Shown here: positions 7,512 through 28,372 of the stretch, in pieces
Numbering within the stretch: the stretch's first letter is position 1
Layout of the letters: every line of letters starts with the position of its first letter
Assembly: GCF_963921235.1 (NCBI RefSeq)
Contig: NC_086097.1
Location: forward strand, 113,586,001-113,650,000
DNA: 64,000 nucleotides
Source of the DNA: Mobula hypostoma
Taxonomy: Eukaryota
Reading direction: 5' to 3'
Translations under genes and position numbers: made by a program
Notes under the pieces: model-generated
Database searches by the model: none
What the model was told of the DNA's origin: nothing
The model's input: only the letters and a program-made list of their open reading frames with translations

Positions 7512-8735
7512 ACGTCGTCGCCGTGGCTATCCCTCGAGGTCGAGGATGATGGTCTTCGTTCTGTTGATCTACTTATGGGCTCTCAAGTGGCTTATGAGTC
7601 CAATCTTGGCTTTGAAAGTTCTTCCGCAATTTATCCCCCTCAGTGCGTAGAATGATTGCATTTCTTATTTGAATGGCAAAAAGATGTATTCTACAACATT
7701 GGAAGGAGATTAATGCCCAATTACGTTTTTATGGTTCTCTCAAACGATACTTTGTCTAAATTTGGAAAAAATCAGAAGTAATCTTTATGATACTTCAGTC
7801 AAATTTGAACAGACCTGGAGATCTTTTATTCAATATTTTCATTTAATGTAACATCTTTTTTTCTCTCTGATCATATATACACTCCCTTCGTGGATTTTAT
7901 CTGTTATTAGTGGAGGTCGGGTTTGAGGTCGTGATTGTTTAATTTGTTTAAGTCTACTATTTACCTAGTTAGCCCACTGCTTTGCTTTGTAGCTTAGTTT
8001 CACGGTAGTTTTTTTGGGGGGGGGAAGTTTTCGGGGTTTTTTTTCTCCTTATTGATATATATGGAAAACTAGCATACAACTATATTACCTCGTTATTTTG
8101 TAACTAACTTACGCTGTTTGCATTGTTTTTTTGTATTAATATTTCTTGTATATCTATATTGTAACAATGTATTGGTTTCTATATGTTTTACCTTTTGTGT
8201 ACTAATTCAATAAAAAGATTTAAAAGGAAAGAAAGTTCTTCCACATTCAGGACAGGTAGTTCCAGATGGCAGACTGGGCTCTGGTTGTTGCTGTTTCTCT
8301 TTCCATTTTCTTCTCTTTTCTTCTAATTCTGCACATCTGTTGGCTTCAAAAGTTGCTGTTCCTTCTCGGATGATGGCTTGCCAGAGTTTCCTGTCCTCGG
8401 CATTGGTTTCCCAATTGTTGATGTCGATGTTACATTTCTTCATGTTGGCTTTTAAGACGTCTTTGAATCTCTTCTGTTGTCCGCCTCTTTTATGTTTGCC
8501 TTCTTTTAAGCTAGGAGTAGAAGATTTGTTTCGGTAGATGTTCGTCTTTCATCCGAACAACATGACCACTCCATCTTAGTTGGCTCTTGATGACGTAGGC
8601 TTCAATGCTTGTTGTTTTTGCTTCATTTAGCACGTTGATGTTGGTTCTTCCATCTTCCCAGCTGATATTTAAGATGTTTCGAAGACAGCGTTGAAGGAAC
8701 TTTTCAAGTGCCTTCAGATGTCATCAGTATGTTGT
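7512..8735 (-). mobile_element. RTE-clade LINE 3' part, split by an L1 insertion
   Basis: Translation ...NWETNAEDRKLW...TCPECGRTF (from 8231) resumes as CGRTFKAKIGLISHLRAHK* at ~7628-7569, an RTE C-terminal C2H2-like motif. Confidence 0.85.
7629..8230 (+). mobile_element. 5'-truncated L1-clade LINE (ORF2 C-terminus, 3' UTR, polyA signal)
   Basis: Encodes MAKRCILQHWKEINA...LNLEKIRSNLYDTSVKFEQTWRSFIQYF; AATAAA near 8209; 15-bp TSD gaaagttcttcc(g/a)ca at 7614-7628 and 8231-8245. Confidence 0.85.
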
Positions 8736-23578: not shown

Positions 23579-24605
23579 ATAGAGGAATAGGAAGCTTTTC
23601 AAAAACCAACAGAAGATAACTATAAACAAGGTTTAAAGGCACATGATAAAATAGGCCAAATTCAGTATGGTTTCCTTAAGGGAAAATCTTGCCTGACAAA
23701 TCTGTTAGAATTCTTTGATGACATAACAGGGCTATGTTAATCGACCGTTATGTGGGAGAGTCAGTGAATGTTGTTTACTTGGATTTTCAGAAGTCTTTTG
23801 ACAAGATGTTGCACATGAGGCTTCTAAACAAGATAATAGCCATTGGTATTACAGATATTAGAATGGACAGAAGATTAGCTGACTGGCAGAATGCAAAGAA
23901 TGGGAATAAAGGAGGCCTTTTCTGATTGGCTGTCAGTGAAATACGGTGTTCCACAGAGGTCGGTGTTGGGTCCTCTACTTTTCCCGTTTTACGTTAACGA
24001 TCTGGGTGATGGAATTGATAACTTTGTCGCCAAGTTTACTGATGATACAAAGGTAGATGGAGGGGCAGATAGTGCTGAGGAATCATGGTGTCTGCAGAAG
24101 GACTTGGACAGATTAGGAGAATGGGCAAAGAAGAGTCAGATGGAATACAGTATAGGGAAGTGTATGGTCATGCACTTTGATAGAAGGAATAAAGGTGTAA
24201 ACTATTCTCTAAATGGAGAGAAAATTCAGAAATCAGAGGTGCAAAGAGACTTGGGAGTCCTGGTGCAGGATTCCCTAAAGGTTAACTTGCTGGTTGAGTT
24301 GGTAGTAAGGAAGGCAATGCAATGTTAGCATTCATTTCAATAGGACTAGTATATAAAAGCAAGGATGAAATGCTGAAGCTTTATAAGGCATTGGTCAGAA
24401 CACAGTTTGAATATTGTGAGCAGTTTTGGGTCCCATGTCTAAGGAAGGATGTATTGACATGGAGAGGGTCTAGAGGAGTTCGATGAGAATTAACCCTTTC
24501 ATTCCTGGTATTATATATGAGGAGTGTTTGATAGCTCTGGACCTGTTCTTGTTGGAGTTTAAAAGAATGAGCAGTGTCTCATTGAAACTTATTGAAGGAT
24601 TGAAA

Positions 24606-25005
24606 ATACACTTGGACTAAGATGTTAACTGTCCTGTGCTATCACCAGTGGGATCATCAGTTGATCTGCCACCTGTCTTCAGGAGTTTCGGCCCACTTAT
24701 GATCAAGACTCCCTCAAGGTGGTGGGCCAGCAGTTCTAAAGCACCATCTCTCACTGGTGAGCTTAAAAACTTGGCATCTGCCTCTATCAGAGTTGTTGGT
24801 CGCTTCCATCCAACAGGTAGTCTACTCTTCAGGTGTCTATGCAACTACTGAAGGGTTTGCAAGATATGTATACACTGTCTGACTATCTGCCCCCTGGACA
24901 TACTTGGTCCACACCCATAATGATCCTCTCTCTGCTGCCTCAGCTACAGCCCTGCTGGTTGACTTGATCTCTCTTCTAGTGAAGCCAAGGTCACCTCGCC
25001 ACACA
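24606..25005 (-). mobile_element. Hero-like (restriction-like endonuclease, R2 group) non-LTR retrotransposon 3' end
   Basis: Minus frame VWRGDLGFTRREIKSTSRAVAEAAERGSLWVWTKY resembles the Hero C-terminal AAE.xS.W.W motif. It interrupts CR1 with an approximate TSD gaa(gg/t)attgaaa at 24594-24605 and 25006-25016. Confidence 0.7.
24647..24713 (-). ncRNA. Candidate permuted/pseudoknotted hammerhead-like RNA motif
   Basis: GGGAGUC UUGAUC AUA AGUGGG CC GAAA CUCCU GAAGACAGGUGGCA GAUCAA CUGAUGA U CCCACU contains all core nucleotides and three complementary stems. Confidence 0.55.
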
Positions 25006-26225
25006 GAATATTGAAAGGCTTGTATAGAGTGGGCATGGAGATGAAATGTTTAGGACCAGAGGGTAGAGATTCGATATACAAGAATGTCCATTTCGAACAG
25101 AGACGAGGAAGAATTTTTTTTAGCTGGATGATGCTGAATCTGAAAAGTTCATTTCCACAAACAACTGTAGAGATTAGGTCATTGGTTAAATTTAAAGAAG
25201 GGTTTGATAAGTTTTCCATTAGTAAGGGCATCAAAGGTTATGGGGAGAAGGCAAGAGAATAAGTTGAAACATAAAGTAAATCAGCCGCGATTGAATGGTG
25301 GAGCAGATTCATTTGTTTGAATGGCCTAAATATGTTACTATATCCTCTGTTCTTAATCTAAAACACCACAGTTATTTCTGACTCCTTTGGATCAATTATA
25401 TTATATGTAGGCAAGAGATCAAATGGGTTTAGAAGCCTTGCTTCTATGATTAGTGATAATAAATCTGGTGCCAGTCTTACAGGGCTGATGACTGAATGCC
25501 TCAAGCTTCCAAGTACAGGGTCATAGAGCACTGCAGCATAGACATGTGTCCTTCGGCCCATTTAGTCCATACTGTACAGTTATTCTACCTGGCCCCACAC
25601 ATGGACTAGGGACCACCTTATTTCTACTATCCATGTACTTATCCAAAACATCTCCTAAGTGTTCAAATTGAACCTGCATCCTCCACTTCCTTTGGAAGCT
25701 CATTCCACACTCTCACCACCCTCTGAGTGAAGCTCCCCTCTCAATTTCTCCTGAAGCATTTCACCCTTCACCCTTAATCTATGACCTTAAGTCTTAGCTT
25801 CACCCAACCTCAGTGGAAAAGCCTGCTTATATTTACCCTATCTATATCACTCATAATTATGTATACCTCCAGCAAATATCCCCTGATCCTCCTCTGCGCA
25901 AGATAAAAATGTCCTAATCTATCCAATATTGCCGTATGAGTCAGGTCCTTAGATACTGGCAACATCCTTATAAATTTTCTCTGTACTCTTTCAATTTTAT
26001 TGATGTCATTCCTGTAGGCAGGTGATCAGAACTGTGTACAATACTCCAAATCTGGCTTCACCATTGTCTTATAAAACTTCAACTTAACATCACAACTCTG
26101 ATTTATGAAGGCCAATGTTCCAAAAACTTTCTTTACATCCCTATCTACCTCTGATACTACTTCCAAGGAATTTTGATCAGTATTCTCTGATCCCTTTGTT
26201 CTACCGCACTCCTCAATGCCCTACT

Positions 26226-26545
26226 ATACCCTAGTATAGGCATTAATCGTGTGGATAGCCAGAGGCTTTTTCCCAGGGCTGAAATGGCTAACACGAGGGG
26301 GCATAGTTTTAAGGTGCTTGGAGGTAGGTACAGAGGGGATGTCAGGGGTAAGTTTTTCACATAGAGTGGTGGGTGCATGGACTGTAATTCCGGCAGTGGC
26401 AGTGAAGGCAATAGGGTCTTTTAAGAGACTCTTCAATAGGTACATGGGACTTAGGAAAATAGAGGGCTATCTGGAAGGGTAATTCTAGGAAGTTTCTAGA
26501 GTAGGTTACATGATTGGCACAACATTGTGGGCTGAAAGGCCTGTT
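26226..26545 (+). mobile_element. CR1 3' fragment nested in the antisense CR1
   Basis: acacgagggggcatagttttaagg, agagtggtgggtgcatgg and CR1 tail; short direct repeat ctact on both flanks. Confidence 0.75.
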
Positions 26546-27397
26546 CTACTGCTCACAGTGTAAGTCCTACCCTAGTTTGTCCTCCAAAAGTGCAATACCT
26601 CACACTTGTCTGCATTAAATTCTATCTGCCAGTTTTCAGCCAGACTTTTCCATCTGGTCCAGATCCCGCTGCAAGCTCTGATATCCTTCCTCACTGTTTA
26701 CCCACAATGGCCCCGATCTTGGTGTTAACCACTAATTTTCTGATCCAGATTACCACATTATAATCCAAATCATTAAAATAGATGACAGACAACAACAGAC
26801 CCAGCTCCAGTCCCTGCAGTACCCCACTAGTCACAGACCTCCAGTCAGAGAGGTAAACATCTACAATCACTCTCTGGCTTCTTCCACGAAGCCAATGTTT
26901 AATCCAATTTACTACCTGAATACCAAGCAACTGAACCTTCAGGACCTGCCTTCCATGCAGGACCTTGTCAATTGACAGCATCTACTGCCTTTCCTTCATC
27001 AAGTTGCCTTATAAACTCCAAAAAAAACCCAAAAGATTGGTTAAACACAACCTACTACACAGAAAAACACGTTGACTAATCAGTCTCCATCTGATCCAGT
27101 CTCCATCTAATCAGCCCCTGTCTATCCACATACTTAAATATTCATCCCTTAGAATACCTGCAGATAATTTACCCTCTACTGACGTCAGGCTTACTGGATT
27201 ATAATTTTTCAGCTCATTCTTTGAGCCTTTCTTGAACAATGGAACAACATTAGCTATCCTCCAGTTCTCCAGCACCTCAACCATGTTTAAGAATGTTTTA
27301 AATACCTCTGCCAGGGCCCCTGTAAATTCTGCACTAACCATCGACAAGGTCTGAGGGGATACCCCGTCAGACCCTGAAGACTTATCCATCCTAATTT

Positions 27398-28372
27398 GTT
27401 TGTCATATATATTAATGATCTGGATGATGGGGTGGTAAATTGGATTAGTAAGTATGCAGATGATACTAAGATAGGTGGTGTTGTGGATGATGAAGTAGGT
27501 TTTCAAAGCTTGCAGAGAGATTTAGGCCAGTTAGAAGAGTGGGCTGAAAGATGGCAGATGGAGTTTAATGCTGAAAAATGTGAGGTGCTACATTTTGGTA
27601 GGACTAAACAAAATAGGACATACATGGTAAATGGTAGGGCATTGAAGAATGCTGTAGAACAGAGAGATCTAGGAATAATGGTGCATAGTTCCCTGAAGGT
27701 GGAATCTCATGTGGATAGGGTGGTGAAGAAAGCTTTTGGTGTGCTGGCCTTTATTAATCAGAGCATTGAGTATAGGAGTTGGGATGTAATGTTGAAATTG
27801 TACAAGGCATTGGTAAGGCCAAATTTGGAATATTGTATACAGTTCTGGTCACCAAATTGTAGGAAAGATGTCAATAAAATTGAGAGAGTACAGAGGAGGT
27901 TTGCTAAAATGTTGCCTGGGTTTCATCTCCTAAGTTACAGAGAAAGGTTGAACAAGTTAGGTTTTTATTCTTTGGAGCGTAGAAGGTTGAGAGGGGACTT
28001 GGTAGAGGTGTTTAAAATTATGAGGGGGATTGATAGAGTTGACGTGGATAGGCTTTTTCCATTGAGAATGGGGGAGATTCAAACAAGAGGACATGTGTTG
28101 AGAGTTAAAGGGCAAAAGTTTAGGGGTAACATGAGGGGGAACTTTACTCAGAGAGTGGTAGCTGTGTGGAACGAGCTTCCAGCAAAAGTGGTTGAGGCAG
28201 GTTTGATGTTGTCATTTAAAGTTAAATTGGATGGATATATGGACAGAAAGGGAATGGAGGGTTATGGGCTGAGTGCAGGTTGGTGGGACTAGGTGAGAGT
28301 ATGAGTTTGGCACGGACTAGAAGGGCCGAGATGGCCTGTTTCCATGCTGTAATTGCTATATGGTTATATGGT
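27398..28372 (+). mobile_element. Young 5'-truncated CR1 with an uninterrupted RT C-terminal frame (~298 aa)
   Basis: YINDLDD..KYADDTK..WQMEFNAEKC..RPNLEYCIQFWSP..RRRLRGDL; (TATATGGT)n tail; taattt direct repeat at 27392-27397 and 28373-28378. Confidence 0.92.

Follow-up and report, generated by a model that had tools for sequence, protein, structure and literature searches.

The window, that is the whole 64,000-nucleotide stretch of Mobula hypostoma DNA that was analysed, holds on its minus strand a 5'-truncated copy of an RLE-type (Hero-like) LINE at 24599..25002, which comprises the end of the ORF and the 3' UTR and was recognised by its genome copies, RVT_1 and the RLE motif. The remnant of the ORF C-terminus (..LGFTRREIKSTSRAVAEAAERGSLWVWTKYVQ..) spans 24893..25002, with an approximate lower boundary, and was located by comparing the window ORFs with the ORF of locus L031 (P0001). 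Copy alignment places the 3' terminal tail of the LINE at 24599..24646, downstream of the putative ribozyme motif described below. This tail shows few differences among related organisms, and the 3' end of the copy is a short CAATYC-type tail; genomic copies agree up to ..GTGTATTTT and then continue into CAATTC- or GTAACTC-type ends.

A genome search of the 3.48-Gb assembly revealed at least 1638 candidate copies of the LINE, the best 29 of which share 95-97% identity with the window copy. The 5' ends are variable and the longest copy extends over at least 3.35 kb. ORF pieces of longer copies match RVT_1 (E = 1e-19) and, weakly, zf-RVT, and encode a C-terminal CCHC together with an 'RPDIIVW..ELTVPWE..K' motif representing the restriction-like endonuclease. 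In an alignment of 33 endonuclease homologues, E187, E193 and K203 are invariant and R170-P171-D172 near-invariant; the nearest named homologues are uncharacterised proteins from Amphiura (brittle star) and Branchiostoma (amphioxus) at 58-65% identity. Locus L041 retains an intact ORF of 1145 amino acids. Thus, the element has the makeup of an RLE-type LINE, namely a single ORF with RT followed by CCHC and a PD-(D/E)xK endonuclease, and variable 5' truncation. It should be noted that this typing is based on RT and endonuclease, and that 'Hero' is a label carried over from the first-pass annotation. In L031, the ORF stops at 7575 and the 3' end lies at 7866, that is 291 nt further on, so the motif sits in the 3' UTR, and the original claim that it belongs to the 3' UTR of a Hero-like retrotransposon is borne out by RT, RLE and an ORF stop about 290 nt from the end.

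The shared part at first looked to stop at 24994, which was the source of the idea that the 400-bp unit is a SINE. This candidate was rejected: 27 of the 29 other copies run on upstream together, and the window copy is 5'-truncated near 25002. ARAGORN found no tRNA-like head on the 400-bp unit. Further, no tandem arrangement was found among the sampled copies in the ray genome; their flanks differ, and L031 and L032 are without upstream tail sequence.

The surroundings of the LINE copy contain remnants of other retroelements. It is inserted, in opposite orientation, in a CR1/L2-like RT remnant (window 23879-24620 and 24995-25262, plus strand). Both flanks translate to the same CR1/L2-like protein part (KLIEGLKIHLD and RILKGLYRVGME, respectively), so that either a target duplication, long and diverged, or two separate fragments may be present here. 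A 304-aa open frame of a CR1/L2-like LINE (RVT_1, 2e-06) is found at 27378-28292 on the plus strand, and the region from 25800 to 27500 contains several further RT fragments in a decayed state, on both strands.

Anatomy of the minus-strand motif

Re-reading of the letters from 24713 to 24647 gave a minus-strand RNA identical to that of the first-pass annotation. From 5' to 3' it consists of GGGAGUC (24713-24707, a stem III strand and the cleavage site), UUGAUC (24706-24701, stem I), the linker AUA, AGUGGG (24697-24692, stem II), CC (24691-24690), GAAA (24689-24686, core), CUCCU (24685-24681, stem III), a 14-nt linker, GAUCAA (24666-24661, stem I), CUGAUGA (24660-24654, core), a single U (24653) and CCCACU (24652-24647, stem II). 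These segments can be grouped into three blocks. Block S (24701..24713) contains GGGAG as the 3' strand of stem III, U16.1, C17 and the UUGAUC of stem I, with the predicted cut at 24707/24706. The linker AUA (24698..24700), as read from the window letters, leads in 3 nt directly from stem I to stem II. Sequence and relatives define block G (24681..24697), with AGUGGG of stem II (most copies have AGCGGG), CC, GAAA and the stem III strand CUCCU, as well as block C (24647..24666), with GAUCAA of stem I, CUGAUGA, U and CCCACU of stem II.

Two additional strands take part in pairing. An upstream strand, GGCCC-A-CCACC (24718..24728), was identified from the MFE fold and from a two-part strand in relatives. 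Its CCACC pairs with GGUGG (24669..24673) to give helix P, by which stem III is extended distally; GGUGG was assigned as the 3' strand of this helix from pairing in relatives. Its GGCCC(AC) can form a helix with the G-rich strand of stem II beside GAAA and therefore competes with stem II.

Within the window, a scanner for any block order on both strands found this site as the sole match, and the 20-mer at the core occurs once, compared with 0 expected in shuffles. The chance of finding such a motif was estimated by first-order Markov simulation of 44 Mb on both strands, allowing any block order and the slack seen here. The product of per-core frequencies amounts to 0.1 motifs/Gb with perfect stems and 1.5/Gb with one stem II mismatch, corresponding to 6e-6 to 1e-4 per window and to between about 1.6 and 24 per 16 Gb. 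A single occurrence is thus within chance at the scale of ~16 Gb, although the expectation per window is negligible. Rfam gave no match for the whole window at the gathering score, none for the hammerhead models around the motif at E<=10, and none at E<=1 in 10 motif-bearing related loci. Neither the nested three-way junction of classical type I, II and III hammerheads nor the corresponding Rfam models describe this site.

The MFE fold of a 101-nt stretch (-31.5 kcal/mol) is ordinary with z = -0.75. It pairs UGGCCCAC with GUGGGCCG, includes the upstream strand pairing and hides CUGAUGA in a local hairpin. Compared with the sum of the hammerhead helices, about -16 to -20 kcal/mol, this nested fold at -30 to -31.5 kcal/mol is more stable by about 10 kcal/mol.

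The genomic copies are young, so that their differences represent decay, and those in the ray genome are too alike for the fold to be judged from them. Close-species variation was taken from assembled contigs of four runs (X9, X12, X14 and X17). No covariation was found in the genomic copies and close-species contigs, where changes are mainly CpG decay. In 18 of the 29 other genomic copies and in most contigs of the four runs, the stem II strand reads AGCGGG, which places a C.A mismatch opposite CCCACU. The perfect 6-bp stem II claimed earlier is consequently correct for the window copy, which represents a minority state; most copies carry the mismatch. G12 is replaced by A in part of the related-organism contigs (e.g. 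24.2 of 37.6 depth in X12) which, given that this is a CpG site, may be explained by decay of dead copies. In both X9 and X12, one contig near window position 24649 carries a 3' UTR variant minus the CUGAUGA stretch and part of the linker, which may be a deleted copy common to both species.

With respect to the predicted cut, 605 exact genomic copies of the core region keep the uncut junction and 0 begin at the cut site. The absence of a pile-up of copies starting at the cut site (0, against a chance expectation of <1 per truncation site) indicates only that this position is no hot spot. The assembled contigs of X9, X12, X14 and X17 gave sequence variants, with neither ends nor joints at the predicted cut site.

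Recurrence and covariation in distant relatives

Starting from the alignment of 33 endonuclease-domain homologues, 80 metagenome loci were collected, representing relatives at 28-77% protein identity. The closest 3' UTR similarity is illustrated by L079, whose 3' UTR is 81% identical to that of the ray element. At 40% protein identity, L048 yields a weak nhmmer match just after the ORF, where it keeps CUGAUGA, GAAAC and a GU-H site. Its stem I reads GUGGU/ACCAC, compared with UUGAU/AUCAA in the ray element, and its stem III GGGCG/CGUCC, compared with GGGAG/CUCCU.

A simple pattern, GAAA followed after 15-45 nt by CTGANGA downstream of the ORF, is present in 22 of the 80 loci. When U16.1 is set by stem III alone, stem I forms 5-8 contiguous pairs at fixed anchors in 19 of these 22 units. 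The letters of stem I differ widely among units and include GCAUGG, UGAUGU, GCAGAUG, CUGGAAA, CCAUCGGU and CGCUCGGC, among others. H17 is A, C or U in 21 of the 22 units with no constraint set at this position. In one unit, L082:3493-3551, the cleavage site is occupied by G (UG in place of UH) and the stems are otherwise intact; this unit may be an inactive copy.

An S-G-C descriptor requiring exact cores, a stem I of at least 5 and a stem III of at least 3 pairs matched 20 of the 80 loci when applied to the ORF strand, and none of the 80 when applied to the opposite strand (210 kb each). Generally, the matches follow the coding region closely, with 18 of 20 located 67-718 nt past the point where the endonuclease match ends. 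When one core mismatch was tolerated, one more locus was obtained on the ORF strand and three on the other strand, which corresponds to noise level. The S-G-C unit at L059:5042 is found as far as 1.6 kb past the endonuclease match, in the same orientation, and probably belongs to a neighbouring copy.

MAFFT was used to align 17 units, that is the ray element and 16 relatives, at a mean column identity of 57%. All share the S-G-C block order, confirming that the strand order differs from the type I, II and III circular permutations as first proposed. Across stems I and III, 98.8% of cells are paired compared with 61.8% in shuffles (0/500 reach this value), and slid-partner controls gave 29-54%. 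Changes on both sides occur in 73 cells compared with 22 in shuffles and involve 10 of the 11 pairs, with 0/500 shuffles reaching the covariation score. The A15.1-U16.1 pair is found in 17/17 units. The core columns are likewise invariant in 17/17, it being understood that the finding pattern itself fixed CUGAnGA and GAAA; at N7 of CUGAnGA, U, C, A and G all occur. Because the units were picked by patterns that fix the core and require the stems, core invariance and the percentage of paired cells are partly the result of selection. Compensatory changes, strand asymmetry and the constant place after the ORF are free of this effect. The covariation called for by the first-pass annotation is therefore found for stems I and III, in relatives down to ~30% protein identity, and the hammerhead core, which in the window copy lies within three helices as first read, recurs there along with these two stems. 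The linker that leads from stem I to stem II reads AUA in the ray element, as originally described; in most relatives it is 0-4 nt long and often UA or AUA. We accept the motif as real on the basis of this recurrence and covariation in distant relatives and not on the single case in the window.

Stem II as drawn is the helix with the least support. In the ray element it is not flush with the core, with U intervening on one strand and CC on the other, and the gap after A9 varies among relatives between 0 and 7 nt. L075 has a flush stem II (GACCC/GGGUC), and the gap is also 0 in L083. Pairing with the own partner (5.00) is hardly better than with non-own partners (4.41), a test that fails to separate stem II because the strand beside GAAA is G-rich in all families. 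The same test gives modest support to the upstream strand (5.81 own, 4.80 non-own), to helix P (6.0 own, 4.5 non-own) and to the long flanking pairing. A two-part strand like GGCCC-N-CCACC is kept in relatives with other letters, its first part pairing flush beside GAAA. Comparing L044 (GGCGGC/GCCGCC) with L045 (GGUGGC/GCCACC) reveals a compensatory change between the upstream strand and the strand beside GAAA. Helix P also occurs in different versions, namely CCACC/GGUGG, CCUCCC/GGGAGG, and CCACAGG/CCUGUGG as compared with CCAUGAG/CUCAUGG.

Proposed working and competing readings

We consider it probable, at roughly 0.65, that the motif is a true type SGC hammerhead ribozyme and an inherited part of the 3' UTR in a clade of RLE-bearing LINEs, a reading based on sequence comparison. 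The RNA would fold through pseudoknots into a three-way hammerhead junction and cut itself after C17 (24707/24706). The predicted cut lies 107 nt from the 3' end of the element and would leave the coding RNA with a terminal 2',3'-cyclic phosphate and release 107 nt of RNA containing the remainder of the ribozyme, blocks G and C included, and the tail. The caveat raised at the outset, that cleavage removes the tail, thus stands.

The conserved competitor strand suggests that cleavage may be gated. In the hammerhead structure reported by Martick and Scott in 2006, stems II and III point in opposite directions. The two parts of the upstream strand are joined by 1 nt, and given the opposed stems the upstream pairing would exclude the active fold. 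It would then represent a competing and probably pseudoknotted state, which would be the first to form because block C is transcribed last. Since transcription reaches the CUGAnGA block at the very end and the stem II strand can by then be paired with the upstream strand, cutting is probably held back, and the uncut RNA would stay available as template for target-primed reverse transcription. Held-back cutting would agree with the sampled genomic copies, all of which go back to uncut RNA.

Three roles of the cut are candidates: processing of read-through or tandem transcripts, control of the share of template RNA that keeps its tail, and a fold that doubles as recognition site of the reverse transcriptase. 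With regard to the first of these, L041 (L041:1-300 and L041:241-3678) contains the ribozyme motif and ~75 nt of tail, followed head-to-tail by the 5' part of the next copy. The tail sequence is that of L042, and the intact downstream ORF begins ~200 nt past the cut site. In tandem or read-through transcripts of this kind, the ribozyme would free the downstream copy, which recalls, by analogy, the HDV-like ribozymes reported at R2 5' ends (PMC13725137).

A more far-reaching reading is put forward only tentatively: the structure may be an ancient and obligatory 3' UTR module of an animal RLE-LINE clade with two states, in which RNA in the upstream-strand pseudoknot would be copied to DNA, and release of that strand would allow the CUGAnGA block to complete the ribozyme and cut. 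If this two-state reading were true, the element would choose between template and processed RNA molecule by molecule, for example by releasing the downstream copy from tandem or read-through RNA, and a non-circular RNA permutation would for the first time have a natural function and a host.

The ribozyme reading has to be weighed against findings that point the other way. The predicted cut removes the tail needed for reverse transcription, the nested fold is more stable, stem II is irregular and G12 is changed to A in part of the contigs. In the main rival explanation, the fold is conserved without useful self-cleavage, the hammerhead-like junction or the competing pseudoknot serving as a recognition structure for the RT, as in R2. 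R2-type elements are reported to bind pseudoknotted 3' UTR RNA (PMC12222951). Such a recognition-only fold is compatible with the conservation of the upstream strand and helix P among relatives, where the joint of 1 nt is typical of H-type pseudoknots, with the upstream strand and the G-rich strand changing together between L044 and L045, and with the irregular pairing of stem II to block C. Likewise, genomic copies all derived from uncut RNA and the low variability of the last ~115 nt among related organisms are in line with it. We nevertheless regard it as less likely: 11 of 11 fixed core letters, A15.1-U16.1 (17/17) and a non-G site (21/22) are retained while N7 varies freely, which is the pattern expected of catalysis. 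Tolerating a single core mismatch gave just 1 more unit on the ORF strand against 3 chance matches on the other, and RNAs of the same layout are reported to cleave in vitro (PMC10085705).

A chance likeness in one repeat family, with helices that do not form, is very improbable. The simulated 0.1-1.5 motifs/Gb would allow several such sites in ~16 Gb, the fold z-score is just -0.75 with no Rfam match, and the copies in the ray genome are too alike to reveal covariation. Chance would not, however, be expected to place a unit of the same order with other stem letters at the same position in 20 of 80 relative loci with 0 on the opposite strand, or to produce compensatory changes in 10 of 11 pairs, and the mean column identity of 57% means that the relative loci are not near-identical copies.

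Relation to known ribozymes

For the preferred reading, a type SGC hammerhead ribozyme, the layout class is already known (2023), and the host and genomic context are new. The hammerhead can be split into blocks S, G and C, whose circular orders are types I to III (Eckert, Friedrich, Weinberg & Weinberg 2023, Nucleic Acids Res 51:2850, PMC10085705). As described in the same paper, the non-circular 'type SGC' order occurs in nature, cleaves in vitro and includes the HRIMA-1 motif as well as 'type-SGC variants'. The examples given there come from metatranscriptomes and metagenomes, with organisms unknown, and often lie beside hairpin ribozymes on RNAs that the authors presume to be rolling-circle RNAs. 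The first-pass annotation knew of no described pseudoknotted hammerhead in Hero 3' UTRs; the layout itself had, however, already been published as type SGC. In the main text of PMC10085705, the only links to retrotransposons or eukaryotes are one reference and one protein name; in the text of its supplement, 'transposon' occurs 0 times and 'eukaryot' once, in a cited title, and four related contig names from our 80 loci are absent from that supplement. In the literature searched, no other paper uses the term 'type-SGC', and a search of titles and abstracts found no LINE-borne permuted hammerheads.

Non-circular permutations of an RNA fold have been known since 2023 from environmental RNA, with origin and role unknown. 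The type SGC layout is now tied to a defined element, a LINE clade with RT and RLE, which would be its first known biological home. It occurs in a cartilaginous fish genome, with the 605 exact core copies mentioned above, and in many other eukaryotic contigs. Experiments can thereby draw on a host, a genomic context and a large number of natural sequence variants. Both the ribozyme class and the 3' UTR position are unreported for LINEs in the literature searched, and standard covariance-model scans are shown to miss such motifs. Further, the question arises how an element carries a ribozyme able to sever its own priming tail.

The ray motif and type SGC, as far as the latter is described in PMC10085705, share the order of site, GAAA and CUGAnGA, the same core letters, three stems that cross as pseudoknots, and covariation of stems I and III. 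The type SGC linker between stems I and II is 'typically three nucleotides', and the ray motif has AUA. Unlike the type SGC examples described there, the ray motif is encoded in DNA and forms part of the 3' UTR in a clade of animal LINEs, and differs in a stem II that is not flush, a long distal extension of stem III and a competing upstream strand.

Two other groups of retroelement-borne ribozymes are comparable. The type I minimal hammerheads of Penelope-like elements and retrozymes, as reported by Cervera & de la Pena 2014 (PMC4209133), resemble the ray motif as a hammerhead core carried by a retroelement. In contrast, their order is the classical nested one, they frequently function as dimers, and the elements that carry them are of another class; Rfam-type models detect them and miss the ray motif. 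The HDV-like ribozymes that R2 and other non-LTR elements carry at their 5' ends (Eickbush & Eickbush 2010; Ruminski et al. 2011, as cited in PMC13725137) represent, similar to what is proposed for the ray motif, a small self-cleaving ribozyme on an RLE-type LINE. Roles in co-transcript processing and translation initiation are attributed to them in the same source. They differ in ribozyme class and in their position at the 5' end of the element, where the cut spares the 3' tail, whereas the ray motif lies in the 3' UTR. HDV-like ribozymes are described as cutting at their own 5' edge, so that the ribozyme is kept on the downstream product, and the same is predicted for the ray motif.
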